Shown here: piece after piece, positions 1-49,881 of the stretch
Position numbering within the stretch: position 1 is the stretch's first letter
Layout of the letters: the number at the start of each line of letters is the position of its first letter
DNA from: an uncultured Kiritimatiellota bacterium
GTDB lineage: Bacteria; Verrucomicrobiota; Kiritimatiellia; RFP12; DVOR01
Assembly (NCBI GenBank): GCA_944389585.1
Contig: CALXMW010000001.1
Coordinates: 7,748-71,747, forward strand
Reading direction: 5' to 3'
Length of the DNA stretch: 64,000 nucleotides
Notes under the pieces: model-generated
The model's database searches: none
The model's input: the letters and a program-made list of their open reading frames with translations, nothing else
Told to the model about the DNA's origin: nothing
Program-made: the position numbers and the translations under genes

Positions 1-866
1 AGGGCATCGCCGCCGAACTCGTGGGCCAGGAAGTCTGCCTCGCCGGCAAGATGTACGACCAAGGGCAAATCGACGCGCTGGGCAAAAAGGTGCAGGCCTT
101 CCTGGCCGACTTCCCGGGGCTCACCGTGAACACCGGCGCCATGCGCGTCTACAAGCAGAAGATTCTCATCGGCATCGAGTTCCTCTCCTATGACAGCACG
201 TTGGCGCGGAACCTGGGCGTGGAGATTTCAGACTCCATCGGCGCGGACTTCGACCTCACCTACACCCTCCACGACAACCTCTCCGGCACCATTGGCAACA
301 GCGACGGCCTCTCCGCCCGAATCAACACCCTCAAGCAGAACGAGGTCGCCAAGCAACTCTACGCCACCACTCTCTCCACCCAGAGCGGCGAGCCCGCCGA
401 GTTCCAGTCCGGCGGCACCCTCTACAAGGAGACCAGCGACCTCTACAAGACCGGCATCACCGAGATTGAGTACGGCTACATCATCAAGGCCCGCCCCACC
501 ATCCTCGACGGCGACACCGTCAACCTCGAGTTCGACCTTGACCTCCGCACCCCCATCAACGACAGTTCCACCGGCGACACTGACGTCTCCCGCTACCAGA
601 CCAAGAGCAAGTACATCGTCCGCCCCGGCGAGAGCATCCTCCTTTCCGGCTTCAACCACTGGACCGAGGGCGGTTCCAAGCGCGGTCTGCCCTTCTTCAG
701 CCGCATCCCCCTCATCGGCCCCCTCTTCGGCAGCGAGGGCCAGGACAACTCCTCGCGCGAGATCCTCCTCGTCGTCACCGTCGACTGGGCCGTCGAGGAC
801 ACCGAGGGCGTCCGCGCCAAGGCCGACGAACTGCGTGCGCGCCCCGTGGAAGTCCCCATGCCGTGA
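1..866 (+). CDS. cpaC: Flp/Tad pilus secretin (CpaC/RcpA-like), 5'-truncated at window edge
   Basis: Frame stays open to window start; C-terminal secretin signature (...SRIPLIGPLFGS...); immediately upstream of cpaF-tadB-tadC. Confidence 0.8.
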   Translation, partial: GIAAELVGQEVCLAGKMYDQGQIDALGKKVQAFLADFPGLTVNTGAMRVYKQKILIGIEFLSYDSTLARNLGVEISDSIGADFDLTYTLHDNLSGTIGNSDGLSARINTLKQNEVAKQLYATTLSTQSGEPAEFQSGGTLYKETSDLYKTGITEIEYGYIIKARPTILDGDTVNLEFDLDLRTPINDSSTGDTDVSRYQTKSKYIVRPGESILLSGFNHWTEGGSKRGLPFFSRIPLIGPLFGSEGQDNSSREILLVVTVDWAVEDTEGVRAKADELRARPVEVPMP

Positions 867-876
867 GGAGCGCCCC

Positions 877-2484
877 ATGAACCCTCTCGCCCTCTATCGC
901 GACGGCAAACGCATCGCCACCCTCAAGCCCTCCGGCAAGCCCGGCGAGTGCTTCTACCTCGGCAGCGCCCCGGCCTGCGACGTCGTCGTCGCGGACGCCG
1001 CCTTCGGCCTGGCCGACCGCCAACTCCGCCTGACCCCGGGCGGCAGCCTCTGGTGGGCCGAGGAACTCACCGGCGACGGCTCCCTCGAATCCGACGGCCG
1101 CCGCGCCGCCAAGCTCCCCATCGCCGGCCGCGTCGCCCTCTCCGTCCGCGGCTTCGCCTTTGAGGCCGAATGCGGCACGGCCACCGCCCGCGTCGGCCGA
1201 CGCGACCTCGCCCGCGACTGGCTCTACGAACGTGCACTCTTCCGCCTCTCCCAAGAAATCGGTGGCGCCGAGACCGTCGCCGATGCCGAGCTCGATCGAC
1301 GCGTCACAGACTTCCTCGACGAAACCATCCGCGAACGTCCCCCGCAGCTCGCCGGCCTCCCCGCGGAGACCCTCGACGCGCTCCGTGCCGAAACGGTGGA
1401 AGACATGCTCCGCCTGGGCCCCCTTGAGCCCCTCATCGCCGATGACTCCATCACCGAAATCATGGTCATCGACTATCGGCGCATCTACGTCGAGCGCGCC
1501 GGCAAGCTCACCCTCACCGAACGCCACTTCCGCGACCCGGAGCACCTCATCCGCGTCATCGAGCGCATCGTCACCCCCATCGGCCGCCGCATCGACGAAT
1601 CCTCCCCCCTCGTCGACGCCCGCCTGGCCGACGGCTCGCGCGTCAACGCCGTCATCCCCCCCATCACCCCGGACGGCGCCTGCCTCACCATCCGCAAGTT
1701 CGGCAAATCCCTCTTCACCCTCGACAAACTCATCTCCATCGGCTCGCTCACCCCGCCCATGGCCCGCTTCATCGAGGCCTCCGTCACCCTCCGCAAGAAC
1801 ATCGTCGTCTCCGGCGGCACCGGCTCGGGCAAAACCTCCCTCCTCAACGCCATCTCCCTCTGCATCGGCGGCGGCGAGCGCATCGTCACCATCGAGGACT
1901 CCCTCGAGCTCAAGCTCCAGCAAGACCACGTGGTGCGCATGGAGGCCCGCCCCGCCAACGCCGAAGGCAAGGGCGCCGTCCCCATCCGCGCACTCGTCGC
2001 CAACTCCCTGCGCATGCGCCCCGACCGCATCGTCGTGGGCGAATGCCGCGGCGGCGAAGCCCTCGACATGCTCCAGGCCATGAACACCGGCCACGACGGC
2101 TCCCTCACCACCGTCCACGCCAACAGCCCCCGCGACACCGTCGCACGCCTCGAGACCCTCTGCCTCATGGCCGGCATGGACCTCCCCCTCTCGGCCATCC
2201 GCGCACAGATCGTCTCCGCCGTCGACCTCATCGTCCAAACCGCCCGCCTCTCCGACGGCTCCCGCAAGGTCACCGCCGTCACCGAGGTCCTCGGCTTGGA
2301 CGACCGTGGCCAGCCCCGCCTCCGCGACCTCTTCGTCTTCCGGCAGACCGGCGTCGACCCCAAGACCCGCAAGGTCCTCGGCGAGCACGTCGCAGTCGGC
2401 CGCCCCACCTTCCTCGGCGACTTCGCCCTCCGCGGCGTCCCCCTCGACGCCGCCATCTTCGACGGGGTGCCCGATGAACCCTGA
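877..2484 (+). CDS. cpaF: Tad/Flp pilus assembly ATPase CpaF/TadA with N-terminal FHA-like domain
   Basis: 535 aa from ATG 877 inside long ORF 190..2484; N-terminal FHA-like segment (GECFYLGSAPACDVVV...); Walker A GGTGSGKTS; T2SS/T4SS secretion ATPase core. Confidence 0.9.
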   Translation: MNPLALYRDGKRIATLKPSGKPGECFYLGSAPACDVVVADAAFGLADRQLRLTPGGSLWWAEELTGDGSLESDGRRAAKLPIAGRVALSVRGFAFEAECGTATARVGRRDLARDWLYERALFRLSQEIGGAETVADAELDRRVTDFLDETIRERPPQLAGLPAETLDALRAETVEDMLRLGPLEPLIADDSITEIMVIDYRRIYVERAGKLTLTERHFRDPEHLIRVIERIVTPIGRRIDESSPLVDARLADGSRVNAVIPPITPDGACLTIRKFGKSLFTLDKLISIGSLTPPMARFIEASVTLRKNIVVSGGTGSGKTSLLNAISLCIGGGERIVTIEDSLELKLQQDHVVRMEARPANAEGKGAVPIRALVANSLRMRPDRIVVGECRGGEALDMLQAMNTGHDGSLTTVHANSPRDTVARLETLCLMAGMDLPLSAIRAQIVSAVDLIVQTARLSDGSRKVTAVTEVLGLDDRGQPRLRDLFVFRQTGVDPKTRKVLGEHVAVGRPTFLGDFALRGVPLDAAIFDGVPDEP

Positions 2485-3337
2485 CCTCCTTGTGGCCTAT
2501 GCCTGCGCCCTCGCCGCCGCACTCCTCGTCGGCCTGGCCGTCCGTGCACTCCTCGCCGCCCGCGCTCGTGCCGTCGCGGCCCGGGAGGACGAACTCGCCG
2601 CACGCGCCGCCGCGGCCGAGGAGCTCCCCGTCCAGGCCGTCCGCCAAGGCGTCGCCGTCGGCGCCATCGCGGTCTTCCTCTTCGGTGCCGTCCTCATGGC
2701 CGGCAAGCCCGGCGCCCTCCTCGTCTTCCTGATCCTCTGCGTCGCCGCGGCCCTGGCCCTGCCCCGCCTCATCCTCGCCCGCCTGGCCCGCCGCCGCCAA
2801 GACCGCCTCCGCGCCGAACTCCCCGATGCGCTGGACATGCTGGCCAACTCCATCCGCGCCGGCCTCACCCTCCCCCAAGCCCTCGCCCGCAACCTCCGCC
2901 GCTTCCCCGCACGCATCGGCGCCGAGTTCGCCCGCATCCTCTGCGACACCCGCCTGGGCTACTCCATCGGCACGGCCTTCGACAACTTCGGCGAACGCCT
3001 CCCCATCCCCGAGGTCCGCATGGTCGTCATCGCCTCCAAAATCGGCGTCTCCCACGGCGGCAACCTCGCCGAGAGCTACGCCATGCTCTCCGCCCTCGTC
3101 CGCGACAACCTCGCCTTCGAGGAGGAACTCCGCGCCATGACCACCGAAGGCCGCATGCAGGCCCTCGTCATGAGCTCCCTCCCCTTCGCCCTCCTGGCCA
3201 TCCTCTTCCTCGTCCGCCGCGAAATCGTCCTCCCCCTCTTCCAGACCGGCGCCGGCCTCGTGACCCTTCTGGCGATGACGGCCATGCAGGCCCTCGCCTA
3301 CGTCTGGATCCGCAAAATCGTGGAGGTGCGCGTATGA
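2474..3337 (+). CDS. tadB: Tad pilus inner-membrane platform protein TadB (T2SS-F domain)
   Basis: 287 aa polytopic membrane protein; ATG 2474 overlaps cpaF 3' end; gene order cpaF-tadB-tadC. Confidence 0.8.
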   Translation: MNPDLLVAYACALAAALLVGLAVRALLAARARAVAAREDELAARAAAAEELPVQAVRQGVAVGAIAVFLFGAVLMAGKPGALLVFLILCVAAALALPRLILARLARRRQDRLRAELPDALDMLANSIRAGLTLPQALARNLRRFPARIGAEFARILCDTRLGYSIGTAFDNFGERLPIPEVRMVVIASKIGVSHGGNLAESYAMLSALVRDNLAFEEELRAMTTEGRMQALVMSSLPFALLAILFLVRREIVLPLFQTGAGLVTLLAMTAMQALAYVWIRKIVEVRV

Positions 3338-4224
3338 GCCCCGATTTCCTCCTCGGCCTCCTCGCCGCCGGCGCCGCCGCCGCGCTCCTGGCCTACGTCG
3401 CCGTCCGCGCCCTCCTCCGGGCCCACGCCGGCATCGCCCACGACGCCGCCGACCGCCCCATCCTCAACCAACTCCTCGCCTGCTTCGCCGGCATCGTCGA
3501 GCGCCGCCGCGGCCGCGACGCCGCCCTCGACGCGCGCCTCACCGAGCTCGAGTCCCTCGTCCGCCAATCCGGAGGCGCCTTCCTCGGCGGCGCCACGGCC
3601 GCGGAAATCTTCGTCGCCCGCTGGGTCTTCCCCGTCCTCTCCACGCTCGTCCTGTCCATCGTCCTGCCGCTCCTGCGCGTCCACCCGGGCCTCGTCTTTC
3701 TGGCAATCGTCCTCTTCGCCATGATGCTCTGGAAATGGCCCGAGAGCGGCCTGCGCGACCTCGCCGCCAAGCGCGCTCGCGCCTTCGTCCGCCAGCTCCC
3801 CGGTGCCCTCGATGTCATGCGCCTGATTAGCCAGTCTGGCGGCGACCTCTTCTCAGGCATCGTCGCCGTCACCCAAGTCACCGAGCCCGGCCCCGTCCGC
3901 GAGGAACTCATCCTCCTGCGCAACGAAGTCGCCTTCGGCGCCTCCCTCCCCGCCGCCCTCAACCACGTCGCCGAGCGCGTCGGCACGCCCGAGGCCACCG
4001 CCGTCTTCACCACCCTCGCCCAGGCCATCGAGATGGGCACCTCCGTCTCCGAGAACCTCCGCTCCGCCTCCGAGCTCATCCGCCGCCAGGCCCGCAGCCG
4101 CGCCCAGGAGCGCGCCCAGAAGGCCGTCGTCAACATGTCCTTCCCCCTCCTCCTGCTCATCCTCCCGGGCGTCTTCATCGTCCTCCTCGCCCCCCTCGTC
4201 ATCCAGTTCCTCGCCTCCCGATAG
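3334..4224 (+). CDS. tadC: Tad pilus inner-membrane platform protein TadC (T2SS-F domain)
   Basis: 296 aa; 4-nt ATGA overlap with tadB; hydrophobic N- and C-terminal helices typical of TadC. Confidence 0.8.
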   Translation: MSPDFLLGLLAAGAAAALLAYVAVRALLRAHAGIAHDAADRPILNQLLACFAGIVERRRGRDAALDARLTELESLVRQSGGAFLGGATAAEIFVARWVFPVLSTLVLSIVLPLLRVHPGLVFLAIVLFAMMLWKWPESGLRDLAAKRARAFVRQLPGALDVMRLISQSGGDLFSGIVAVTQVTEPGPVREELILLRNEVAFGASLPAALNHVAERVGTPEATAVFTTLAQAIEMGTSVSENLRSASELIRRQARSRAQERAQKAVVNMSFPLLLLILPGVFIVLLAPLVIQFLASR

Positions 4225-4233
4225 GAGCCCGCC

Positions 4234-5280
4234 ATGGCCAAGCCCGACCGCCCGACCCTCCCCTTCACCCTCCACGGCCAACGCCGCCTCATCGCCGGCG
4301 CCCTCCTCGTCGCGGCCTTCCTCCTCGCCCTTCTGATCTATCTCCAGTGGGGCCGCGTCCGTGACCTCCGCGCCGAGCTCGCCCGCCCCCTCCCCTACAC
4401 GCTCGTCGACGACCGCCTCACCGTCTCACCCGCCCCCGCTTGGGGTGCCTACGCCGCCATCGGCGGCGACCGCCCCACCCGCCTCCTCATCTTCCGCGAA
4501 CACCCCGATGGCTCCGGCGCACTCGCCGTCCTCCAGACCACGCGCGCCCCCGCCCTCGCCGCACGCGCCCTCGACCTCTCCCCCGCCGTCCTCGCCACCA
4601 AGCTCACCGCCTCGCACACCGCCGCCATTGGCCGCACCCAGCCCGTCCGCCTCCTCGGCGTCGAGACCCGCCCCCACGCCTCCGGCACCGTCGCCGCACA
4701 CTTCTTCTTCGATGCAGAGGACGACCACGGCGAGGGCATCCTCTTCTACGCCGACGACGTGGAATACCTCTTCTGGGGCCACCGCGGCGGCGAGCATTCC
4801 CCCGCCCTCGCACCCTTCTTCGCCGCCGTCGGCGGCGCCGTCACCCTCCCCGAGGGCCTTCGCGACACCTTCGACCGCCCCATCATCGACTCCAACACCT
4901 TCACCTTCGCCCAAGCCCGCGCCATCGCAGAGGAGGCCGAGCGCGAACGCGCCGCCGCCCGCACCGCCGCCGACCGCGCCGACCTCGTCCCGGCACTCGA
5001 CCACTACCGCAAGGCCCTCCGCCTCCTCGCCTCCATCCGCGAGGAAGACCTCCTCCTCGCCTCCCCCGAGACCGACCGCTTCCAAGCCCTCGCCGAAGAC
5101 CGCCGCAGTCAACTCGACGGCTGGTTCGCCCGCCTCGACCGCGCCCTCGGCATGGGCGACACCGAGGCCGCCCGCACACAGGCCGCCTTCATCCGCGACA
5201 ACGCCACCCTCGAGGGCGAGGCCCCCGACCGCCTCCGCGCCGAGGCCGTCCTCCGCGCCCTCCCCGCGCCCAAACAATAA
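4234..5280 (+). CDS. hypothetical membrane-anchored protein (Tad-operon associated)
   Basis: 348 aa; one N-terminal TM helix (LIAGALLVAAFLLALLIYL) then soluble domain with helical, TPR-like C-terminus; starts 10 nt after tadC. Confidence 0.55.
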   Translation: MAKPDRPTLPFTLHGQRRLIAGALLVAAFLLALLIYLQWGRVRDLRAELARPLPYTLVDDRLTVSPAPAWGAYAAIGGDRPTRLLIFREHPDGSGALAVLQTTRAPALAARALDLSPAVLATKLTASHTAAIGRTQPVRLLGVETRPHASGTVAAHFFFDAEDDHGEGILFYADDVEYLFWGHRGGEHSPALAPFFAAVGGAVTLPEGLRDTFDRPIIDSNTFTFAQARAIAEEAERERAAARTAADRADLVPALDHYRKALRLLASIREEDLLLASPETDRFQALAEDRRSQLDGWFARLDRALGMGDTEAARTQAAFIRDNATLEGEAPDRLRAEAVLRALPAPKQ

Positions 5281-5291
5281 GGAGACACCCC

Positions 5292-7097
5292 ATGGAACTC
5301 CTCCACCTTCACCGCGCGGACGGCGCCCTCATCAAGACCTTCGACCTCGCCGCACTCCCCCGCCGCCCCCTCACCCTCGGGGCCAACCCCGCCGCCGACC
5401 TCCCCCTCCCCGAAGGCCCCGCCACCCTCGCTGCCCTCCTCCGCGACGAGGACGGCTGGCTCCTCGCACCCGCCGACCCCGCACTCCCCGAAACGCGCCT
5501 TCTTCCCGGCGAGCCCGCCGCACTCGGCCCCTTCCGCTTCCGCATCGAACGCGACGCCGTCCAAGCCCGCGCCACCCTCCTCTGGCGCGACGGCCGCGGC
5601 AAGACCGTCCACGCCGCGCCCCTCGCCGACGGACGCAACGCCCTCGCCTGGCTCCCCGACCATTCCGCGCCGGCCCTCAACCCACCCATCCCCGGGGACA
5701 AAATCTGCGACCTCTTCCTCGAGGGCGACACCCTCACCCTCATCGCCGGCGACGCCGAAGGGTCCGCCGACCGCCTCGCCTTCGCCCTCGGCGACCGCTT
5801 CGCCATCGGTTCCCTCCAAGGCCTCGCCCTCCCCACCCCCTTGGCCGAGCGCGCGCTGAGAACCCGCAATCCCCTCGCTTGGCCAGACCGCCGCATCCGC
5901 CTCCTCCTGCGCGTCGCCGCCGTTGTCGGCCTCATCCTCGGCCTCATCCTCCTCGCCTTGGCCCGACAGGCCAACGCCCTCCGCGCCGAACGCGACGCCC
6001 GCCTCCCCGCCGTCGTCGCCCTCCCCGCGCCCGAGCTGCCCGCCGACGCCGACCCCCTCACCCGCGATGCCGTCATCGCCTACGGCCAGCTCTTCCACGC
6101 CTGCCTCCCCGGCCTCCTCGACTCCCCCGAGGCCGCCGCCTCCGGAGACCTCCTCGCACGCCGCGCCGAAGAGCTCCTCAACGGGCTCCCAAAAGACGCC
6201 CCCGACCGAATCCCCCTCGCCCGCAAATGGGCCTTCCTCAAAAATCTCGCCGACCTCAAGCGTGCCGTCGCCGACGGCGACTGGCCCAGGCTCGGCCCCT
6301 CCCTCGACGCGCTGGACGCCGACGTCCTCGCCTACTACGACGCCGACCGCCTCCTCGCCGACGCCCACGCCCTGGACCGCTACTTCAACCAAGCCTACCC
6401 CGAGGCCTGCCGCGACCTCTGCCGGGGCGGCGCGCCCGCCTCCGTCGAACCCCGCCGCCAAACCCTCCGCGACAATCGCTTCCGCGGCCTCCCCATCGTC
6501 GCCAAACGCCTTGACGCGCTCGACCGCCACTGGGCCGCACTCCTCGCCTGGCACGACGCGGACCAAGCCTTCGGCGGCAGTGCCGCCGGTGCGGACGCCC
6601 TCGACGCCTGCGACGCCAAGGGCATCCTTCGCGAGGCCCTCTATGACCTCGAAGACGCCACCGACGCCTTGGAAGACCCCGCCCTGGACGCGCTCCTCCG
6701 CCATGTGCGCGACACCCTCTCCGGCAGGGTCGAAGCCCGCATCGCCGCCCGTTGCGGCGAAGGCGACGCCCTCCTCGCGCCCAACATCGCCACCCCGGGA
6801 GAGCTCCGCGCCCTTGCCCGCCTGGCCCGCGCCCTCGGCACGCCCCGCGCCCAGGCCGCCGCCCAACGCGCTCAGGCCCGCGCCGACGCCATCGTCGCCG
6901 ACTACGAGCGCCGCTGCCGAGCCCTCATCGTCGACTACCGCCTCAAGCGCCTCGCCGGCGACGCCCCCGCCGCAGACGCCATCCTCGCCCAAATCCTCGC
7001 CCTCGGCCCCGCAGACAGCCCCTTCTGGGCCTGGGCCCAGCGCGAACAGGCCCGCGCCGCCAAACCGGGCGTGCCCCAACCGGAGGACCTCCCATGA
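5292..7097 (+). CDS. hypothetical protein, degenerate FHA-like N-terminus + single TM + long helical domain
   Basis: 601 aa; ATG 5292 with RBS ggagacacc inside ORF 4440..7097; TM RIRLLLRVAAVVGLILGLILLAL; Ala/Leu/Asp-rich C-terminus. Confidence 0.55.
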   Translation: MELLHLHRADGALIKTFDLAALPRRPLTLGANPAADLPLPEGPATLAALLRDEDGWLLAPADPALPETRLLPGEPAALGPFRFRIERDAVQARATLLWRDGRGKTVHAAPLADGRNALAWLPDHSAPALNPPIPGDKICDLFLEGDTLTLIAGDAEGSADRLAFALGDRFAIGSLQGLALPTPLAERALRTRNPLAWPDRRIRLLLRVAAVVGLILGLILLALARQANALRAERDARLPAVVALPAPELPADADPLTRDAVIAYGQLFHACLPGLLDSPEAAASGDLLARRAEELLNGLPKDAPDRIPLARKWAFLKNLADLKRAVADGDWPRLGPSLDALDADVLAYYDADRLLADAHALDRYFNQAYPEACRDLCRGGAPASVEPRRQTLRDNRFRGLPIVAKRLDALDRHWAALLAWHDADQAFGGSAAGADALDACDAKGILREALYDLEDATDALEDPALDALLRHVRDTLSGRVEARIAARCGEGDALLAPNIATPGELRALARLARALGTPRAQAAAQRAQARADAIVADYERRCRALIVDYRLKRLAGDAPAADAILAQILALGPADSPFWAWAQREQARAAKPGVPQPEDLP

Positions 7098-7936
7098 TCC
7101 GCAAACTCTGCTATCTCCTCTTCGGCATCCTTGTCGCACTCTGCGCCCTCAAGGCCATCACCGCCGCCAAGGCCCGCCGCGCCAGCACCCCGGCACCCGT
7201 GCCCCCCAGCGCGGAGGAGACCGCCACGCCCCTCGCCGGCAATGCCCTCCACATCCACTACCAGCCCTGGCAGCCCTACGCCGGCCACGACCCCATCTCC
7301 GGCCGCGACGGCTACTGCCTCGACGTCATCCACCGCATCTTCCCCCAAGCCACCCTCGCCTACGACGAACACCCCACCGACGCCCAGCTCATCGCGCACG
7401 TCGCCGACTCCCCTGAATGCGCCCTCGTCACCCTCGGCCGCCACCCCGACCTCCAAGGCTTCCCCCAGTCCAAGACCCCCATCGCCCACTACACCATCAC
7501 CGTCATCTCCCCGCGCAAAAACCCCTGGCGCTACACCAGCCCAGAGTCCCTCGAAAGCATCCGCCTCGCCTACTCCCGCACCTACCTCGACGCCCCCCTC
7601 GTCGCCGAGCACTGGGCCCGCCACAAAGACGACCCCAAGCGCGCCCTCCTCCTCCCCGACGACACCTCCGCCGACGACTGGCTCCCCCGCGCACTCGCCG
7701 GAGACTGCGACGCCATCGTCCTCACCCTCGCCGCCGCCCGCTGGGATGCCGACAACACCAACCTCGTCCTCCGCGACGACTTCCGCGATGCCGGCCCCAT
7801 CCAGCAAGTCCCCCTCTTCCTCACCCTCTCCCCCAAGAACCCCAACGCCCCCGCCATCCTCGAAGAATTCGAGCAAGGCATGGCCCGCCTCCGCGCCGAC
7901 GGCACCCTCGACCGCCTCCACGCACTCTACTTCTAA
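7094..7936 (+). CDS. periplasmic substrate-binding-like protein (type-2 PBP fold, family-3 SBP-like)
   Basis: 280 aa; ATGA overlap with upstream gene; N-terminal signal/anchor (LCYLLFGILVALCAL); no ABC permease or ATPase partner nearby. Confidence 0.6.
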   Translation: MIRKLCYLLFGILVALCALKAITAAKARRASTPAPVPPSAEETATPLAGNALHIHYQPWQPYAGHDPISGRDGYCLDVIHRIFPQATLAYDEHPTDAQLIAHVADSPECALVTLGRHPDLQGFPQSKTPIAHYTITVISPRKNPWRYTSPESLESIRLAYSRTYLDAPLVAEHWARHKDDPKRALLLPDDTSADDWLPRALAGDCDAIVLTLAAARWDADNTNLVLRDDFRDAGPIQQVPLFLTLSPKNPNAPAILEEFEQGMARLRADGTLDRLHALYF

Positions 7937-7962
7937 GCGGCGCGCCTGCGCTCCGGAGAGAC

Positions 7963-8086
7963 CCCATAAGGGTCCGCCGCCAACCCTTATAAGGGTTGGC
8001 CTCGGCCCCTTATAAGGTCTCGACCCCAACCCTTATAAGGTCTCACGCCGGACCCTCCAAGGGTGCAGGACGGCCCCCTTAGGGGA
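7963..8086. repeat. tandem array of six ~23-bp units each centred on a CCTTATAAGG-type palindrome
   Basis: Cores at 7963, 7984 (perfect 12-mer CCCTTATAAGGG), 8007, 8030, 8053 (CCTCCAAGGG), 8075 (CCCTTAGGGG); period 21-23 bp; between SBP-like gene stop and moxR promoter. Confidence 0.8.
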
Positions 8087-9192: not shown

Positions 9193-10077
9193 ATGGAAAT
9201 CGACACCGAAGAGCTGATGAAGGAGGTGGGGCGGATCCGCATCCTCACCAGGCGGCTGCTCGACGAGCGGCTGAGCGGCGACTACCACTCCGTCTTCAAA
9301 GGCCAGGGCATCGAGTTCGACGAAGCCCGCCCCTACCAGCCCGGCGACGACGTGCGCGCCATCGATTGGAACGTCACCGCGCGCATGGGCGAGCCCTACG
9401 TCAAACGCTTCAGCGAGGAACGCGAGCTCACCGTCCTCTTCCTCGTCGACGTCTCCGGCAGCCAAAGCTTCGGCTCCGCCGGCCGCTCCAAGGCCGCCCG
9501 CGCCGCCGAGCTCACCGCCCTCCTGGCCCTGGCCGCCCTCTCCAACCAAGACAAGGTCGGCCTCCTGCTCTTCTCCGACCGCGTGGTGAAAAGCCTCCCC
9601 CCGCGCAAAGGCCGCACCGCCGTCCAACGCCTCGTCCGCGAGGTCCTCGCCGCCGAGGAGACGCACGAGGGCACCGACATCCGCGCCGCGCTCCGCTTCG
9701 CCTCCGCCACCCAACGCCGCCGCGCCGTCGTCTTCCTCATCTCGGACTTCCAGGACGCGGGCTACGCACGCGAGCTCGCCGCCTTCGCCCGCCGCCACGA
9801 CGTCATCGCCTGCCGTCTCTCCGACCCCGCCGAGGCCGCGCTCCCCAACGTCGGCCTCGTGGCGCTCTGGGATCCCGAGACGCACCGCACCCACCTCGTG
9901 GACACCGCCAGCGCCGCCGTCCGCCGCGCCTACGCCCAAAGCGCCGCCGCGCGCCGCGCCGAGCAGGAACGCGCCTTCGCCCGCGCCGGCGTCGACCTCC
10001 TTGACCTTTCCACCGACAAGCCTTACGTCGACGCCGTGCGCGGCCTCTTCCGCCGCCGCGCCGCACGCCGCCGTTGA
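9193..10077 (+). CDS. DUF58-family protein (MoxR-associated, vWA-like)
   Basis: 294 aa; ATG 9193 with RBS aaggagagg; DUF58-like segments (DVRAIDWNVTAR, LVDVSGS); the usual partner of MoxR. Confidence 0.8.
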   Translation: MEIDTEELMKEVGRIRILTRRLLDERLSGDYHSVFKGQGIEFDEARPYQPGDDVRAIDWNVTARMGEPYVKRFSEERELTVLFLVDVSGSQSFGSAGRSKAARAAELTALLALAALSNQDKVGLLLFSDRVVKSLPPRKGRTAVQRLVREVLAAEETHEGTDIRAALRFASATQRRRAVVFLISDFQDAGYARELAAFARRHDVIACRLSDPAEAALPNVGLVALWDPETHRTHLVDTASAAVRRAYAQSAAARRAEQERAFARAGVDLLDLSTDKPYVDAVRGLFRRRAARRR

Positions 10078-10088
10078 AAGGAGCCCCC

Positions 10089-11282
10089 ATGGATTCCATC
10101 CGCGACATCTTCAAGATCGGCGTCGGCCCCTCCAGCTCCCACACCATGGGCCCGCGACGCGCCGCCGAGACCTTCCTCGGCCGCTTCCCCCAGGCCGCGC
10201 GCTTCCGCGTCTCGCTCTACGGCTCGCTCGCCGCCACCGGCCGCGGCCACCTCACCGACAAAGCCATCCTTGACGTCCTCGGCCACGACCGTGCCGAGAT
10301 CGACTGGCAGCCCGCCACCTTCCTCCCCTTCCATCCCAACGGGATGCGCTTCCACGCCCTTGGCCCGGACGGCGCCGAGCTCGGCCGCTGGGAAGTCTAC
10401 AGCATCGGCGGCGGCTTCCTCTCCGAAGGCCCTGGCAAGACCCAGACCACCGCCGTCGCCTACCCCCACACCACCATGTCCGACATCCTCGGCTGGTACG
10501 CCCAGACCGGCAAAATCCTCTGGGAATACGTCCTCGAATACGAAGGCCAGCCCGTCTTCGACCACCTGCGCGAGGTCTGGCGCGTCATGCGCGAGGCCGT
10601 CGAGCGCGGGCTCGAGGCCGAGGGCGTCCTCCCCGGCGGCCTGGGGCTCCAACGCAAGGCCAGCGCCTACCACCGCCGCGCCATGGGCATGCGCGAGGGC
10701 ATCCGCGGCCGCGGCCTGCTCTATGCCTACGCCCTGGCCGTGGCCGAAGAGAACGCCGCCGGCACCGGGCTCATCGTCACCGCCCCCACCTGCGGCAGCG
10801 CCGGCGTCCTGCCCGCCTGCCTCTATTATCTCTTCAAGCACCACGACCTGCCCGAGAAACGCATCATCCGCGCCCTGGCCACCGCCGGGCTCATCGGCGC
10901 CATCGTCAAGGAAAACGCCTCCATCTCCGGCGCCGAGGTCGGCTGCCAGGGCGAGATCGGCGTGGCCTGCGCCATGGCCGCCGGCGCCGTCAACCAAATC
11001 TTCGGCGGCTCCCCCCACCAAATCGAATACGCCGCAGAGATGGGCCTGGAGCACCACCTCGGCCTCACCTGCGACCCCATCAACGGCCTCGTCCAAATCC
11101 CCTGCATCGAGCGCAACGCCTTCGCCGCCGCCCGCGCCATGGACGCGAACATGTACGCCGCCCTCTCCGACGGCCAGCACAGCATCTCCTTCGACAAAGT
11201 CGTCCGCGCCATGCTCCAAACCGGCCACGACCTGCCCAGCCTCTACAAGGAAACCTCCGAGGGCGGCCTCGCCAAAGCCTGA
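10089..11282 (+). CDS. sdaA: L-serine dehydratase, iron-sulfur dependent, single-chain (beta+alpha)
   Basis: 397 aa; SerDehyd beta N-terminus (IGVGPSSSHTMGP) and alpha domain; start 10089, or 10074. Confidence 0.85.
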   Translation: MDSIRDIFKIGVGPSSSHTMGPRRAAETFLGRFPQAARFRVSLYGSLAATGRGHLTDKAILDVLGHDRAEIDWQPATFLPFHPNGMRFHALGPDGAELGRWEVYSIGGGFLSEGPGKTQTTAVAYPHTTMSDILGWYAQTGKILWEYVLEYEGQPVFDHLREVWRVMREAVERGLEAEGVLPGGLGLQRKASAYHRRAMGMREGIRGRGLLYAYALAVAEENAAGTGLIVTAPTCGSAGVLPACLYYLFKHHDLPEKRIIRALATAGLIGAIVKENASISGAEVGCQGEIGVACAMAAGAVNQIFGGSPHQIEYAAEMGLEHHLGLTCDPINGLVQIPCIERNAFAAARAMDANMYAALSDGQHSISFDKVVRAMLQTGHDLPSLYKETSEGGLAKA

Positions 11283-11761: not shown

Positions 11762-11830
11762 GGGGCGAACCACCGGGCAGGGCTCCCCGGGCGACCGGGC
11801 GGCCCCCGGGCGGCGCGTGCAAAGCCCGGG

Positions 11831-11846
11831 GGAATGTGCTAAACTG
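11831..11846 (+). promoter_or_regulatory. candidate promoter of accD (GGAATGTGCTAAACTG, extended -10)
   Basis: Recurring motif about 36 nt upstream of ATG 11882; RBS aaaggag in between. Confidence 0.45.
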
Positions 11847-11881
11847 CAATCAATCTTCAACAAGAATAAAGGAGTCTCTTT

Positions 11882-12718
11882 ATGGCTTGGTTCACGAAGG
11901 CGCAGGAGGCGCCGCTGCGCGTCCCCACCGAGGCGCTCTGGAACGTCTGCAAGAAATGCGGCGCGTACACGCCCAAGGACGAGTACGCGGCGAACCTGAA
12001 GGTGTGCCCGGCGTGCGGCGCGCATGGCCGGCTCTCGGCGCGCGAGCGCATCGCGTTGCTGGCGGACAAGGGCTCCTTCAAGGAGATCGCCGCCGAGGTC
12101 ATCGCGCACGACCCGCTGGCCTTCCACGACGCGAAGGACGCCTACGCCCAGAAGGTGGCCGCGACGCGCGAGAAGACGGGCATCGGGGAATCAATCGTCG
12201 TGGGCACGGCGAAGCTCGACGGCATCCCCGTGGTGCTCGGCGCGATGGACTTCCGCTTCATGGGCGGCTCGCTGGGCTCCGGCACGGGCGAGCGCATCCT
12301 CCAGGCCGCCGAGACGGCCCGCAGGCTGAAGCGCCCGCTCATCCTCTGCACCGCCTCGGGCGGCGCGCGCATGCAGGAGGGTATCGTCTCGCTCATGCAG
12401 ATGGCCAAGACCTGCGCCGCCATCCAGCGCCTGCGCGACGAGGGCCTGCTCTATGTCTCCGTCATGACCGACCCCACCACCGGCGGCGTCTCGGCCTCCT
12501 ACGCGATGGTGGGCGACCTCAACATCGCCGAGCCCAAGACGCTCATCGGCTTCGCCGGGCGCCGCGTCATCGAGACGACCATCAAGCAGAAGTTGCCGCC
12601 GGAGTTCCAGACCTCGGAATACCTGCTGGAGCACGGCTTCCTGGACAAAATCGTGGCGCGCAAGGACCTCAAGGCCTTCCTCGCCAAGACGATCCGGTTC
12701 CTGACGGCCGCGAAGTAA
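11882..12718 (+). CDS. accD: acetyl-CoA carboxylase carboxyltransferase beta subunit
   Basis: 278 aa; N-terminal zinc ribbon CKKCG...CPACG; carboxyltransferase fold. Confidence 0.95.
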   Translation: MAWFTKAQEAPLRVPTEALWNVCKKCGAYTPKDEYAANLKVCPACGAHGRLSARERIALLADKGSFKEIAAEVIAHDPLAFHDAKDAYAQKVAATREKTGIGESIVVGTAKLDGIPVVLGAMDFRFMGGSLGSGTGERILQAAETARRLKRPLILCTASGGARMQEGIVSLMQMAKTCAAIQRLRDEGLLYVSVMTDPTTGGVSASYAMVGDLNIAEPKTLIGFAGRRVIETTIKQKLPPEFQTSEYLLEHGFLDKIVARKDLKAFLAKTIRFLTAAK

Positions 12719-14948: not shown

Positions 14949-15788
14949 ATGGTTCCGGATTCCCTGGTGATTTTGGCCGGCCGCGGGGATTACCCCGCCT
15001 GCGCCCTGGCCGGCGCCCGCGCCGCGGGCGTCAAGCGCATCCTCGTCCTCGGCGTGCGCGGCATGGTCGAGCGGCGCGTCCTGCGCGCGGCCGACGAGGC
15101 CGTCGTCTTCGGCGCGGGCGAGCTGGGCAAGGCGTTGGAGTGGCTGGGGCGCTGCGGCGTGCGCCAGATGATGCTGGTGGGGCAGATCACGCCGCTGGCC
15201 CTTTTCCGCACGCGCTTCGACGCGCTCACGCGCCGCCTCCTCGCCGAACTCCCGGCGAAGAACGCGCACACCATCTTCGGGCGGCTGATCCAGGAGGTCG
15301 AGGCCCGCGGCGTGCGCGTGCTGCCCTCCTCATGCTTCATGGGCGCGCACATCCCCGACGCGGGCATCCTCACCGCGCGGGGGCCGGACGCCCGCGAGGC
15401 GCGGGACATCGCCTTCGGCCACAAGGTCGCCATGGGCGTGTGCGCGCTGGACGTCGGGCAGACCATCCTGGTCAAGGACGGGATGGTGCTGGCCGTCGAG
15501 GCCTTCGAGGGCACCAACGCCACCGTGCGCCGCGGCGCGCGGCTCGGCGGCAAGGGCGCCGTCATGGTCAAGGTCGCCAAGGCCGGGCACGATATGCGCT
15601 TTGACATCCCCGTCTTCGGCGAGCACACCGTGCGCCTCTGCCGCAAATGCGGCGTCACGGCCGTCGCCTTCCAGGCCCACCGGCTGGTGATGATCGATCG
15701 CCCGCGCGTCGTGTCCCTGGCCGACCGCTACGGCATCGCCCTGGTCTCCCTGCGCACCGAGCTCCCCCCCGCGCCGCTGTTGCCGTGA
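14949..15788 (+). CDS. lpxI: UDP-2,3-diacylglucosamine hydrolase LpxI (DUF1009)
   Basis: 279 aa; conserved LpxI blocks DVGQTILVKDGMVLAVEAFEGTNAT and MRFDIPVFG. Confidence 0.75.
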   Translation: MVPDSLVILAGRGDYPACALAGARAAGVKRILVLGVRGMVERRVLRAADEAVVFGAGELGKALEWLGRCGVRQMMLVGQITPLALFRTRFDALTRRLLAELPAKNAHTIFGRLIQEVEARGVRVLPSSCFMGAHIPDAGILTARGPDAREARDIAFGHKVAMGVCALDVGQTILVKDGMVLAVEAFEGTNATVRRGARLGGKGAVMVKVAKAGHDMRFDIPVFGEHTVRLCRKCGVTAVAFQAHRLVMIDRPRVVSLADRYGIALVSLRTELPPAPLLP

Positions 15789-15810
15789 TTTTGCGCTTGC
15801 GCGGCGGCGG

Positions 15811-15825
15811 CGGTTTTGGTATCGT
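15811..15825 (+). promoter_or_regulatory. candidate promoter of the leu leader (GGTTTTGGTATCGT)
   Basis: The -10 TATCGT ends 10 nt before leader ATG 15836, implying a near-leaderless leader transcript. Confidence 0.4.
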
Positions 15826-15835
15826 TGGAGCCGTC

Positions 15836-15925
15836 ATGAAACGCAAGGACTTCGCGCTTGGCCTTCGACTTAGCCTCCTGCCGCTGTTGGGCGGCGGGTC
15901 GCGGCGGGCTTGGCGCGCGGAATGA
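15836..15925 (+). CDS. candidate leucine-rich leader peptide (leu operon attenuation)
   Basis: 29 codons MKRKDFALGLRLSLLPLLGGGSRRAWRAE; 7 Leu in 11 residues; followed by terminator hairpin and then leuA. Confidence 0.5.
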   Translation: MKRKDFALGLRLSLLPLLGGGSRRAWRAE

Positions 15926-15950
15926 GGCGCGCATGACGTGACGAAACGGT

Positions 15951-15990
15951 GGCCTCCGCGGGTTGGTATGACGGCGGGGGCCTTCTTTTT
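15951..15990 (+). terminator. attenuator/terminator hairpin GGCCTCCG...CGGGGGCC + TTCTTTTT
   Basis: 8-bp stem with one G-U pair, U-rich tail ending 30 nt before leuA RBS; overlapping alternative hairpin GCGCGC(ggaatgag)GCGCGC at the leader stop. Confidence 0.55.
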
Positions 15991-16037
15991 GCGAAAGGCC
16001 CGCTGTCCCCAAGGGGCCAATGAACAGGAAGCGAAAC

Positions 16038-17618
<1,581 letters not shown>

Positions 17619-17635
17619 GCGAAAGGAGCCGCCCC

Positions 17636-18199
17636 GTGGACATCGCCACGCTGGACGCCCGCGCCCTCCGCCTAGGCCAGAGCCTCACGCTCGAGGGCCT
17701 CGTGCACACCGGGCGCGACCGCTTCCACAAGCACCTCCACGAAGGCGGCGCCCTCCCCCCCGGCGTCGACCTGCGCGCCTCCGCCCTCTACCACTGCGGC
17801 CCCGTCATGGTGAAGGACGCCGCGGGCGCCTGGCGCATGGTCGCCGGCGGGCCCACCACCTCCTCCCGCGAGGAGCCGTACGAGGCCGACGTCATCGCCC
17901 GCTTCGGCCTGCGCGTCATCATCGGCAAAGGCGGCATGGGCCCCAAGACCGTCGCCGCCTGCAAGGAACACGGGTGCGTCTACCTTCAGGCCGTCGGCGG
18001 CGCGGGCGCCCTCATCGCCGCCTGCGTCGAGCGCGTCGAAGGCGTCGACTTCCTCGAAGACTTCGGCCCCGCCGAGGCCATGTGGCACCTCCGCGTCCGC
18101 GGCTTCCCCGTCACCGTCGCCATCGACGCCCACGGCAACAGCCTCTACGACCAAGTCGCCGCACGCTCTGCCGAACGCCTCCGCGCCCTCCTCGCCTGA
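17636..18199 (+). CDS. class I fumarate hydratase-type Fe-S hydro-lyase, beta (C-terminal domain) subunit
   Basis: 187 aa from GTG 17636 (RBS gaaaggagcc); FumA_C/TtdB-like block VIIGKGGMGPKT...VYLQAVGGAGA; no alpha subunit adjacent. Confidence 0.7.
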   Translation: MDIATLDARALRLGQSLTLEGLVHTGRDRFHKHLHEGGALPPGVDLRASALYHCGPVMVKDAAGAWRMVAGGPTTSSREEPYEADVIARFGLRVIIGKGGMGPKTVAACKEHGCVYLQAVGGAGALIAACVERVEGVDFLEDFGPAEAMWHLRVRGFPVTVAIDAHGNSLYDQVAARSAERLRALLA

Positions 18200-18210
18200 C
18201 GGGCAAGGAA

Positions 18211-18246
18211 ACAAAAAAGCCCCCGGCGATACCGGGGGCTTTTTTA
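18211..18246. terminator. bidirectional rho-independent terminator (A-tract, GCCCCCGG-loop-CCGGGGGC, T-tract)
   Basis: Sits between convergent fumarase-beta (+) and ybaK (-) genes; a second near-copy GGGGGTATTTTTTATTGGG lies at 18296-18316. Confidence 0.6.
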
Positions 18247-18308
18247 TTGGGCGCAGGCCCGGCCGGCGCGGCGCCGCCAAGGCTGGGCGGGTTCGCCGGG
18301 GGTATTTT

Positions 18309-18788
18309 TTATTGGGTGAGCGGGGCGAAGGCCGCCGGGATGAGCGCGGCGAGCGGCTTCGGGGCGAGGGAGACGTTCAGGCCGATCTGCCCCGCGCTGA
18401 CGTACAGCTCCGGCAACGCCTCGGCCGAGGCATCGATGAAGGTGGGGAAATGGCGCTTCATACCCAGCGGCGAGCAGCCGCCGTGGCGGTAGCCCGTGAG
18501 CGGGAAGAGCCTGGCCAGCGGAAGCATGGCCAGGGCCTTGACGCCGGCGGCCTTGGCGGCCTTCTTCAAGTCCAGCCGCCCATCGGCGGGGATGACGAAG
18601 ACAAAGGCCTCGTGGCGCTCGGTCTCGGTGACGAGGGTCTTGAAGACGATGCGTGGGGGGATGCCAAGCTGCGCGGCGATCTCGGCCGCCTCCGCCTGGC
18701 CGCCGCGGCCGTCGAAGGCGTGCGGCACGTAGGCGAGGCCGGCGGCCTCGAGGATGCGCTCAACGTTGGTCTTCTTGGCGGCTTTCAC
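18309..18788 (-). CDS. ybaK: YbaK/ProX-type Cys-tRNA(Pro) deacylase
   Basis: 159 aa from GTG 18788; motif HGGCSPLGMK; the upstream part of ORF 18309..19208 is out-of-context overlap. Confidence 0.75.
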   Translation of the reverse strand: MKAAKKTNVERILEAAGLAYVPHAFDGRGGQAEAAEIAAQLGIPPRIVFKTLVTETERHEAFVFVIPADGRLDLKKAAKAAGVKALAMLPLARLFPLTGYRHGGCSPLGMKRHFPTFIDASAEALPELYVSAGQIGLNVSLAPKPLAALIPAAFAPLTQ

Positions 18789-18792
18789 GATT

Positions 18793-19260
18793 TTACGCCC
18801 GCAGGGCGCGCTCGGCGCAGAAGCGGATGAAGGCGGCGCAGGGGCGCGCGGCGTAGTAGGCCGGCGTGCGCGGCTCAGGCCGGTCGCCGGGGCGCTTCTC
18901 GATGCCGGCATCCGCGAGGAGCGCCTTGCAGACGTGGGTACCGAAACGGGCGTCGAAGTCGGCGACCGCGCCCTGCACGGCCTCGTAGAGGGCGGCCTTC
19001 TCGCCGTCTTCCATCGGCCGCCCGGGGGCGGCGCGGTGGCCGAGCGCGGCGGCCATGGCCAGGACGGCCCCGCAGGTCTCGCGGAGCCCCCCCACCCCGG
19101 CGCCGAGCCCGGCGGCCAGGCGCAACGCCTCGGCCTCGGCCAGCCCAAGGGCGGGGGCGCAGGCGACAAGGACGGATTGGGCGCAGTTGCACCCGGAGCA
19201 AAAGGCACGCACGGCCGCCTCGCCGTGCGTGCCTGCTTGCCGTTGCCCTTCGGCGCTCAT
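18793..19260 (-). CDS. C_GCAxxG_C_C-family putative redox protein
   Basis: 155 aa; motif CSGCNCAQSVL. Confidence 0.7.
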   Translation of the reverse strand: MSAEGQRQAGTHGEAAVRAFCSGCNCAQSVLVACAPALGLAEAEALRLAAGLGAGVGGLRETCGAVLAMAAALGHRAAPGRPMEDGEKAALYEAVQGAVADFDARFGTHVCKALLADAGIEKRPGDRPEPRTPAYYAARPCAAFIRFCAERALRA

Positions 19261-25943: not shown

Positions 25944-26707
25944 CGCCTGAGTGCCTCCGTGGCGATGGCGCAGGCGCGCTCGACGGCGGCGGCGTGGGCG
26001 GGGATGAGGGTGAGGAGGTAGCGGCGGCGGATCTCGACCTCGCCGCGTTCGAGGGCCAGGCGGCGGGAGGCACGGTAGTGGAGGCCGCCGTTGCACCAGG
26101 CCAGCTGGATGAAGACGAAGTCGGCGAAGCTGGCGATGTCGGCGTAGTCGACGCTGTCGCCACGCTCGAGGGCGGCGAGGACTTTGGGGGAGGGCGGGCC
26201 GTCGAGGGGGAGGCCCCAGTAGACGTCGGGGTGGGAGGGAAGGTAGTCGGTCTCGATGGCGTGGTCGAGAACGGTGTAGATATCGAGCTTGTCGGCGTCG
26301 CGGACGAGGTGGGCGAGGGCGAGCTCGTCCGGGGGAAGGCATGGGGGAAGGTCGCGGAGGTTGTGGCACTCGATGGCGCGGAGGATGGCGTTGCGGGTGG
26401 GGGCGTCGGCGTCGTCGAGCCAGCCGAGGCGGAGGAGTTCGGCGCAGCTGAGGAGGGCGTGGTTGACGCTGACGCGATCGCTGAAGGTGCGGTATTGGGT
26501 GTATTGGCGGAAGCGGCCGAGGTCGTGGAGCCAGGCGGCGGCCTCGCCGAGGGGACGGAGGCGCGGGGGGAAGGCCTCGCCGTCCATGATGGCGCGGGCG
26601 TTGGCGGCGACGCGGCGGGTGTGGTCGCGCTTGAGGCGGTTCATGTCCTCGGCGGGGAAGCCGTCGGCGTAGGCCTCGAAGGCGGCGGGGATATCGTGGA
26701 GCTGCAT
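25940..26707 (-). CDS. HD-domain phosphohydrolase family protein
   Basis: 255 aa; HD motif (...WLHDLGR...DADKLD); 4-nt overlap with the downstream membrane protein gene. Confidence 0.7.
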   Translation of the reverse strand: MQLHDIPAAFEAYADGFPAEDMNRLKRDHTRRVAANARAIMDGEAFPPRLRPLGEAAAWLHDLGRFRQYTQYRTFSDRVSVNHALLSCAELLRLGWLDDADAPTRNAILRAIECHNLRDLPPCLPPDELALAHLVRDADKLDIYTVLDHAIETDYLPSHPDVYWGLPLDGPPSPKVLAALERGDSVDYADIASFADFVFIQLAWCNGGLHYRASRRLALERGEVEIRRRYLLTLIPAHAAAVERACAIATEALRR

Positions 26708-26717
26708 GGCGGAGCTT

Positions 26718-29444: not shown

Positions 29445-29839
29445 CACACGCGCCCCCCTTCCGGCGCGGCGCGCCACCGCCGGGCCAACTCCCCGAGCGG
29501 CCGCCCGAGCGCCTCCTCGCCGGCCTGCCCCAACCGCCGCCCAAGCGCGCCCAGAAAGCGCGTCAGCTCGCTGTCGTCATAGATGCAATGCTCGGGGTAA
29601 AGCACCAGGTACACCTCCATCGGCGTGGCCTCCGGCGGCAAGTTCCGCGCCGACCCGCGGCGGAGGGCGAAGGCCGTCTCGAAGGCCCCCAGGAAATCCG
29701 CGTCCGCCTCGCCCCACGCAGGGTTCGGCGCGGGATAGGCCCGGCGGAAGCGCCGCGCCTGCGCCCCCCGGTTCCATCGCCAAATCAGCGCCGTCACCAC
29801 GGCCAAGGCCACCACGTAAAACACGATCCGCACGCTCAT
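29444..29839 (-). CDS. hypothetical membrane-anchored protein
   Basis: 131 aa; N-terminal TM (IVFYVVALAVVTALIW); codirectional and contiguous with polA. Confidence 0.5.
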   Translation of the reverse strand: MSVRIVFYVVALAVVTALIWRWNRGAQARRFRRAYPAPNPAWGEADADFLGAFETAFALRRGSARNLPPEATPMEVYLVLYPEHCIYDDSELTRFLGALGRRLGQAGEEALGRPLGELARRWRAAPEGGRV

Positions 29840-30420: not shown

Positions 30421-30421
30421 C

Positions 30422-33526: not shown

Positions 33527-33543
33527 GCGCGCTCCTTTCCTTC

Positions 33544-33682: not shown

Positions 33683-33707
33683 CGGGATGTTTGCAAGGAG
33701 GTTTTGC

Positions 33708-49871: not shown

Positions 49872-49881
49872 GGATTCCCTC

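Follow-up and report, generated by a model that had tools for sequence, protein, structure and literature searches.

The distal half of a Tad/Flp pilus operon

The first 7,936 positions of the 64-kb stretch of Kiritimatiellota DNA analyzed here (the window, meaning the whole stretch) are filled by seven co-directional genes on the + strand, which form the 3' half of a ∼16-kb, 16-gene operon for a Tad/Flp pilus. By exact sequence matching, the window belongs to a metagenome scaffold of 326 kb. The 5' half lies upstream of the window and was read from a locus of the same species (L007). It encodes Flp pilins, a prepilin peptidase, TadE/TadG-like pseudopilins and CpaB, so that the pilus locus does not begin at position 1, as a preliminary description of this DNA had taken it to do. 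The core machine is conventional, and the two halves together make up a complete operon for a Tad/Flp (type IVc) pilus, found in gut bacteria belonging to the Planctomycetes-Verrucomicrobia-Chlamydiae (PVC) group. Its last three genes, designated by their open reading frames (ORFs) as ORF348, ORF601 and ORF280, have no match above threshold in Pfam or NCBIfam and, as judged from their conservation in related loci, are integral to the operon. The genes and domains are:

1–866, + strand: C-terminal 287 aa of a secretin of the RcpA/CpaC type, cut by the window start (Pfam Secretin, E 5e-22)
877–2484, + strand: CpaF/TadA-type motor ATPase, 535 aa, with an extra N-terminal domain (T2SSE, E 1.6e-57, aa 180–457; NCBIfam TadA-family ATPase, E 3.7e-95)
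877–1191, + strand: putative divergent FHA-family domain of CpaF, aa 1–105, assigned by orthology (Yop-YscD_cpl sub-threshold)
2474–3337, + strand: TadB-type inner-membrane platform protein, 287 aa (T2SSF, E 7.8e-12)
3334–4224, + strand: TadC-type inner-membrane platform protein, 296 aa (T2SSF, E 4e-16)
4234–5280, + strand: ORF348, single-pass inner-membrane protein, 348 aa, with a transmembrane segment at aa 19–37, a predicted periplasmic PsbP/DcrB-like domain at aa ∼72–183 and predicted TPR/MIT-like helices at aa 225–342
5292–7097, + strand: ORF601, single-pass inner-membrane protein, with predicted FHA-fold domains at aa 1–87 and 94–181, a transmembrane segment at aa 204–222 and a helical domain at aa 255–590
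7094–7936, + strand: ORF280, anchored or secreted protein resembling family-3 solute-binding proteins (SBP_bac_3, sub-threshold), last gene of the operon

All Tad genes of the window start with ATG behind a GGAG-type ribosome-binding site, and from the secretin to ORF280 they are separated by gaps of 9–11 nucleotides (nt) or overlap, by 11 nt at CpaF/TadB and by a 4-nt ATGA at TadB/TadC and at ORF601/ORF280. The Tad genes named in the preliminary description are all present, on the + strand and tightly coupled, with Pfam or NCBIfam matches for the core. The secretin gene is seen whole in L007 (8620–9990), where it encodes 456 aa. Each product of the last three genes carries one hydrophobic segment (ORF348 aa 19–37, ORF601 aa 204–222, ORF280 aa 5–23).

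The upstream half in L007 completes the machine. Of its four small genes one passes the Pfam Flp_Fap model (75 aa, E 3.7e-10), one stays sub-threshold (70 aa, E 3.9e-4) and two have no match. They are accompanied by an A24 prepilin peptidase (Peptidase_A24, E 6.4e-19), by proteins of 755, 380 and 240 aa with TadE/TadG-type N-terminal motifs (TadE/Tad models), and by RcpC/CpaB (RcpC and SAF). The core set of Flp pilins, A24 peptidase, TadE/TadG-like proteins, RcpC/CpaB, secretin, CpaF, TadB and TadC is present in one co-directional cluster, and a CpaF/TadA ATPase stands beside two separate GspF-like platform proteins (TadB and TadC), as in Tad systems. CpaB and the pseudopilins sit upstream, and the three genes after tadC are none of these, as had been stated before. 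A member of the cluster of CpaF sequences with at least 90% identity is annotated as "CpaF family protein" of Candidatus Spyradenecus faecavium (PVC group at NCBI), and metagenome-assembled genomes with a related operon are labelled Kiritimatiellaeota, Kiritimatiellia or Lentisphaeraceae/Candidatus Spyradenecus.

For TadZ/CpaE, no ParA/MinD/CbiA-type match was found among the 22 genes of L007, nor in the distant loci L016 and L017 (the genome elsewhere was not searched), and TadD and RcpB have no Pfam match in the locus. ORF348 has TPR-like helices, yet it is a single-pass inner-membrane protein and not a lipoprotein, whereas TadD is a TPR lipoprotein pilotin.

Upstream, between a TadE-like gene and cpaB (L007 6876–7796), lies a gene for a protein of 306 aa whose N-terminus includes a hydrophobic segment. 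The protein has no Pfam match, either in the window species or in its L016 and L017 orthologs, and the gene is syntenic in the related loci that cover this region, although in L016 it is missed by tblastn and suggested only by a 308-aa ORF at the same position. It is a fourth accessory gene of this operon type without family assignment.

Conservation of the three genes in related Tad loci

Seven other loci have the genes in the same order, TadC-ORF348-ORF601-ORF280, with identities of 24–90% (24–32% at the lowest). When all operon proteins were used as tblastn queries, the same order was recovered from the pseudopilins through ORF280 in L010, L012, L013 and L014, and the far more distant L016 and L017 have the same gene order too. 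On three short contigs (L011, which ends inside the ORF601 gene, L015 and L018) the fragments fit this arrangement. The motor and the three accessory proteins compare with the window as follows:

CpaF: 77% identity in L013, 69% in L017, 67% in L016
ORF348: 38% in L013, 32% in L017, 27% in L016
ORF601: 31% in L013, 28% in L017, 27% in L016
ORF280: 42% in L013, 33% in L017, 28% in L016

Synteny stops right after ORF280, where MoxR-DUF58 follows in the window, a poly(A) polymerase in L017, an EamA gene on the opposite strand in L016 and AdhE in L012. The ORF601 and ORF280 genes overlap or abut in L015, L016 and L017 as well, and every CpaF encoded next to the three genes is 532–535 aa long and retains the N-terminal extension. 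An exhaustive hidden Markov model search of 1.84 billion proteins returned 46 representatives of the ORF601 family, ∼35 of them full length (570–625 aa), and among the loci examined all members with upstream context lie in Tad loci.

Since order and coupling are conserved while the genes past ORF280 change, the three genes appear to belong to the machine. Their absence from orthologous Tad loci had been named beforehand as the sign of unrelated neighbours; they are instead found in the same order in relatives. They could still be passengers, functionally unrelated to the pilus and merely co-transcribed with it, as their lack of detectable sequence similarity to known Tad components would allow. 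Yet the arrangement persists down to ∼25–30% identity while everything beyond ORF280 is exchanged, and the layout of ORF601, with FHA-fold domains followed by a transmembrane segment, recalls accessory proteins of other secretion machines. We consider mere co-transcription highly improbable, and the least credible of the readings weighed here.

Two irregularities were seen among these loci. In L014 the ORF601 ortholog (10001–10906) has only ∼302 aa, matching aa 1–103 and 384–596 of the window protein. The second FHA-like domain, the transmembrane segment and the start of the helical domain are absent from it; a 303-aa representative with the same C-terminal match (P0021) exists in the protein library. 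Either a natural deletion or a fault of assembly could explain the short form. In the contig of one sample, L009, tadC is disrupted (3808–4889): a 63-aa T2SSF fragment remains, with a 128-aa ORF on the opposite strand in between, and the flanking genes are intact; an insertion, a gap or a misassembly may lie behind this.

A tandem FHA-fold module predicted in ORF601

ORF601 was modelled with AlphaFold2 from a 33-sequence family alignment, at a predicted local distance difference test (pLDDT) score of 84.8. The model has two beta-sandwich domains (aa 1–87 and 94–181) and an all-helical domain of ∼340 residues (aa 255–590), and the hydrophobic span at aa 204–222 lies within a long helix (194–236). 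The top Foldseek matches are YukB of Bacillus subtilis (9qks_H) and EssC-N (5fwh), with probabilities of 0.99–1.00 over ∼206–210 columns, and their span covers both beta-sandwich domains; the helical domain obtained generic helical-repeat matches only. On this model, the N-terminus can confidently be described as two tandem FHA-fold domains. The layout given in the preliminary description, a degenerate FHA-like N-terminus followed by a transmembrane segment and a helical domain, is retained, with two FHA-fold domains in place of one.

Sequence profiles do not recognise the fold. Searched with the FHA profile (PF00498), which the preliminary description had named as a check, and with Yop-YscD_cpl, none of the 33 family members gives a match at E ≤ 1. 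The family consensus has neither SxxH nor NG, and only a G114-R115-N116 motif is kept, in domain 2. The two domains resemble each other weakly (hhalign E 0.0012, probability 20%), and hhalign detects no similarity between the N-terminal domain of CpaF and either of them (probability ≤2.3%), so that the FHA-like domains of CpaF and ORF601 do not look like recent duplicates of each other. We infer that the N-terminus of ORF601 is cytoplasmic and its helical domain periplasmic, because the protein has no signal peptide and the FHA domains of its solved bacterial matches (EssC, PrgH) are cytoplasmic.

The motor ATPase and the question of phospho-regulation

In CpaF, the ATPase module begins at aa ∼180 and the region at aa ∼110–175 aligns with a helical region common to orthologs, which leaves aa 1–105 as an addition. 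In the window copy this addition stays below the Pfam gathering threshold for FHA and resembles only Yop-YscD_cpl, an FHA-like family, at 13.8–15.9 bits against a cut-off of 33.2 (E 0.016–0.07). The same sub-threshold resemblance is seen in four of six close CpaF orthologs. In L016 the syntenic ortholog scores above the Pfam FHA threshold (PF00498; 27.0 bits against a cut-off of 20.7, E 6e-6), that in L017 is sub-threshold for both families, and the window and distant N-termini align colinearly, sharing MNPL..GKRIATL.P...F.LG.A...D.VV....WW. Since the L016 ortholog passes and the N-termini are colinear, we accept aa 1–105 as a probable divergent FHA-family domain, assigned by orthology. A profile of the domain searched against PDB sequences gave no FHA match, only chance matches at E∼2, and a search of aa 1–175 against an index of 5.8 billion proteins gave only two matches. 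The N-terminal FHA-like domain of ∼110 aa reported previously therefore holds as an extension (of ∼105 aa) and, through its ortholog, as a member of the FHA family, although the window copy itself is sub-threshold.

A paralog offers a comparison. L012 has a second, partial Tad cluster (15496–20419), ∼4 kb downstream of its operon with the three accessory genes, which encodes a 210-aa protein, CpaB, CpaF, TadB and TadC and has neither an adjacent secretin nor the three genes; the window has no counterpart of it. The CpaF of this cluster (562 aa) has a canonical FHA domain (E 4.9e-14) that shows the motifs GR, SELH and SSNGT, and behind it a Pro/Ala-rich linker; no such long, disordered linker follows the N-terminal domain of the window CpaF. 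Both hhalign and MAFFT place the two domains in the same register, with an hhalign probability of only 10.7%. In this weak alignment the contact residues are replaced in the window protein (R by S30, S by G44, H by D47 and N by G68, or by D67 with a one-residue shift), which at this low probability turns the motifs GR, SxxH and N into GS, GxxD and G or D, and the CpaF orthologs, too, have other residues in place of the Arg and the Ser. The canonical phosphothreonine-contact residues thus seem to be gone from the domain in the window, an indication rather than proof, and the substitutions argue against canonical phosphothreonine reading by this CpaF.

These observations bear on the idea, put forward in the preliminary description, that the pilus motor may be phospho-regulated, with phosphothreonine set by a Hanks-type kinase and read by the FHA domains of both CpaF and ORF601. 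The large Ser/Thr kinase invoked there, 27 kb away, is real: window positions 34569–37595 encode a 1008-aa protein with a Pkinase match (E 1.7e-41) and a double zinc ribbon. An FHA-family domain, by orthology, in CpaF and an FHA fold in ORF601 would suit such a scheme; the fully canonical FHA domain of the L012 paralog makes phospho-control of Tad ATPases plausible in this clade, and published work has considered class III CpaF and Kil in such terms (PMC12019362, PMC8460266). On the other hand, CpaF of the window and its orthologs seem to carry other residues at the canonical R, S, H and N contacts, the ORF601 family has no Pfam FHA match among its 33 members, and the best structural match of ORF601, EssC-N, itself has no phosphothreonine-binding residues (PMC4925161). 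The kinase has housekeeping neighbours (genes for a TatD-like protein, a dihydroorotate-dehydrogenase electron-transfer subunit and UbiA), and no kinase or phosphatase (PP2C) gene is found in the Tad loci L007, L016 and L017. Given the distance of 27 kb and the non-conserved flank downstream of the operon, the location of the kinase carries no evidential weight. We therefore regard regulation of the motor by this or another Hanks-type kinase as unsupported and very unlikely.

ORF348 and ORF280 as candidate periplasmic partners

For ORF348, AlphaFold2 with 10 close homologs gave a model with a pLDDT of 67.6, comprising an N-terminal transmembrane helix, an alpha/beta domain at aa 72–183 (pLDDT 60–80) and a confident helical domain at aa 225–342. 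The alpha/beta domain, modelled with moderate confidence, may be PsbP/DcrB/DUF1795-like. PsbP-like and TPR-like folds are both typical protein-protein interaction modules. The membrane anchor reported earlier for the product of the gene after tadC is confirmed (aa 19–37); its length is 348 aa and not 349.

ORF280 matches SBP_bac_3 below threshold in the window (14.0 bits, E 0.043) and in its L016 ortholog (18.9 bits, E 0.0013; cut-off 26.4), and the orthologs in L013 and L017 give no SBP_bac_3 match. When a profile of seven ORF280 orthologs was searched against PDB, the top three matches were all substrate-binding domains of GlnPQ or other amino-acid systems (6h30, E 0.004; 4g4p, E 0.026; 4oen, E 0.067, covering aa 58–277), mutually consistent and each weak. 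A profile built from five close orthologs had found nothing relevant in PDB, and the matches emerged once three distant orthologs were added. ORF280 may thus be a very distant family-3 solute-binding protein, an assignment that remains weak. No ATP-binding cassette (ABC) permease or ATPase genes are found near it in L007, L016 and L017, in agreement with the previously described periplasmic-binding-fold protein that has no ABC partner and closes the operon through an ATGA overlap. The hydrophobic segment at the start of ORF280 is either a signal peptide or an anchor. A lipoprotein was considered and rejected, the Cys in the signal region not being conserved.

Such a protein raises the possibility of ligand-gated control, in which ORF280 would bind a small molecule and act through the helical domain of ORF601 and its tandem FHA module on CpaF, switching the pilus between extension and retraction. 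ORF280 is the nearest thing to a ligand-binding fold in the operon, it is an orphan with respect to ABC partners, and its translational coupling to ORF601 recurs as overlap or abutment in the three loci named above. ORF601 in turn would have a receptor-like layout, with a periplasmic domain, one transmembrane segment and a cytoplasmic output domain. Receptors that depend on a binding protein exist, as in LuxP-LuxQ and TorT-TorS, and provide a general precedent. Yet all matches of ORF280 to solute-binding proteins are sub-threshold, and the sequences fit a sensor and a scaffold equally well, so that the same genes are compatible with a structural role. We hold ligand gating to be possible but, as it stands, unlikely. 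A more specific version, in which the three proteins would form a phosphorylation-independent transmembrane relay that replaces TadZ, with ORF280 sensing a gut-derived small molecule and ORF601, with ORF348 as co-scaffold, signalling to the degenerate FHA domain of CpaF and so gating extension and retraction, is somewhat less likely again. If true, it would give type IV filament motors an input logic of a new kind and would place one tandem-FHA architecture in both Tad and type VII machines.

A proposed docking and scaffold module

We propose that ORF348, ORF601 and ORF280 form a phospho-independent scaffold and docking module of the inner membrane and periplasm, standing in for TadZ, TadD and RcpB, and give this reading a probability of roughly 45%. 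ORF601 would span the inner membrane with its EssC-like tandem FHA-fold module facing the cytoplasm, where the module would dock or position the CpaF hexamer, possibly via the degenerate FHA-like N-terminal domain of CpaF. On the other side of the membrane, the helical domain of ORF601 together with ORF348 and ORF280 would link the TadB/TadC platform to CpaB and the secretin. The scaffold is the best-supported reading and a sensor relay its main rival, and the two are not mutually exclusive.

Several points weigh against the proposal. The G-R-N motif conserved in domain 2 of ORF601 might leave that protein some phosphate-binding ability, and the residue mapping in CpaF derives from low-probability alignments (10.7% in hhalign). 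The alpha/beta domain of ORF348 is modelled with moderate confidence only (pLDDT 60–80). Genes for TadZ, TadD or RcpB could lie in another part of the genome. Should the L014 form of ORF601, which is without aa ∼104–383, prove genuine, that genome may be able to do without the full protein. Finally, an orphan solute-binding protein such as ORF280 points to sensing more than to a scaffold alone.

Tad pili are behind adhesion and colonisation and, among predators, behind contact killing. The answers known so far to how their one bifunctional motor is positioned and switched all lie at the N-terminus of CpaF/TadA or in TadZ, and this gut PVC lineage would show a further solution. If the proposed contacts are real, the three proteins would constitute three new Tad accessory families and would strengthen the case for FHA folds serving secretion machines as phospho-independent docking modules.

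Comparison with known systems

FHA domains fused to CpaF are already in the literature: class III CpaF is one case (PMC12019362) and KilF, from the Kil system of Myxococcus, another (PMC8460266). FHA-rich Tad-like loci are likewise known from Kil, so that the value of the present operon is comparative rather than one of surprise. Class III CpaF proteins, found mostly in betaproteobacteria, e.g., Achromobacter xylosoxidans, have the order FHA, intrinsically disordered region, three-helix bundle, N-terminal domain and ATPase (PMC12019362). The window motor likewise has an extra N-terminal FHA-family domain, by orthology, ahead of helical and ATPase modules. It differs in that this domain is below Pfam thresholds and without GR, SxxH and NG in the (weak) alignments, in the absence of a long Pro/Ala-rich linker, and in its PVC host. 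In Bdellovibrio it is TadZ itself that is fused to TadA (bioRxiv 10.64898/2026.07.08.737194), and it seems that spatial or regulatory coupling recurrently occurs through N-terminal additions to TadA.

The Tad-like Kil system of Myxococcus xanthus, which serves contact killing and is encoded in two clusters, combines the FHA-fused ATPase KilF with FHA-TPR and PrgH-like FHA proteins (MXAN_4648, MXAN_4649) beside the platform genes; TadD and RcpB are missing and TadZ is not listed (PMC8460266). KilD is a cytoplasmic FHA-TPR protein recruited to the Kil machine (PMC8460266, PMC12075869). The window operon shares the FHA-fused ATPase, the lack of a recognised TadD, RcpB or TadZ, and an FHA-type protein near the platform genes, the accessory FHA proteins being likened here by the published domain table (PMC8460266, supplementary file 1). 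Unlike Kil it is a single operon with TadG-like proteins, and PsbP-like and SBP-like (solute-binding protein-like) partners are unreported for Kil.

The best structural likeness of ORF601 is to the tandem FHA domains of EssC/YukB of type VIIb secretion (PDB 5fwh, 1wv3, 9qks), at an identity of only ∼10–16%. EssC-N is a documented FHA module that does not bind phosphopeptides (PMC4925161). EssC continues into FtsK-type ATPase domains, whereas ORF601 has no ATPase and continues instead into one transmembrane segment and a presumably periplasmic helical domain. In contrast to the inner-ring proteins PrgH, YscD and MxiG of type III secretion, ORF601 would have an all-helical periplasmic part instead of ring-building alpha/beta motifs, and it has two FHA-like domains versus one. 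TadZ/CpaE is a ParA/MinD-type ATPase with a receiver-like domain, and nothing similar is found in the Tad locus of the window; the likeness to TadZ is a proposed functional analogy, in that the module may position or dock the ATPase at the machine. In the literature searched, neither the set of an EssC-like tandem-FHA protein, a PsbP-like/TPR protein and an orphan SBP-like protein nor its strict linkage to a CpaF with degenerate FHA domain is described, and the searchable literature yielded nothing on Tad pili in Kiritimatiellota.

Flanking genes and repeat arrays

The MoxR and DUF58-VWA genes that follow ORF280 in the window were considered as operon members and rejected, because the spacer between ORF280 and MoxR is 213 nt long with its own promoter-like site and because these genes are absent downstream in L013, L016 and L017. 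At the other end of the operon, in L007, a gene for a Peptidase_C10 protein (streptopain-family cysteine protease, ∼980 aa; positions 1–963) lies on the same strand and ends just 5' of the first flp-like gene. Elsewhere in the window, three + strand ORFs of 958, 1167 and 1295 aa (26706–29582, 30221–33724 and 47972–51859) have no Pfam match at E ≤ 0.001. Positions 1–8000 have a G+C content of 65–74% and an unusually strong coding-strand GC skew of −0.20 to −0.39 (1-kb windows), with C over G on the + strand; this composition gives rise to long spurious ORFs, in several frames and on either strand, and ORF lists need care.

Short tandem repeats bracket the Tad operon. Right after ORF280 lies:

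7964–8042, no strand assigned: array with a 23-bp period and the palindromic core CCTTATAAGG, three exact copies and one degenerate

The exact copies of CCTTATAAGG stand at 7985, 8008 and 8031. A similar array of five units is found in L007 (976–1084), between the C10-peptidase gene and the first flp-like gene, and both share the palindromic core (A/C)CCCTTATAAGG(G/T). The core 10-mer occurs nowhere else in the window, with 0 occurrences expected by chance. The 10-mer is present only in loci of the same species and not in L010–L018; the array could be an operator array, a repetitive extragenic palindromic (REP)-like element or an island boundary. In L014 another tandem repeat, with a 22-bp period and ∼8 units (TCGGCGGCTGA...; 11789–11964), occupies the equivalent position downstream of the ORF280 ortholog, and short-period repeats after the Tad operon may for this reason be a recurring feature whose sequence is not conserved.

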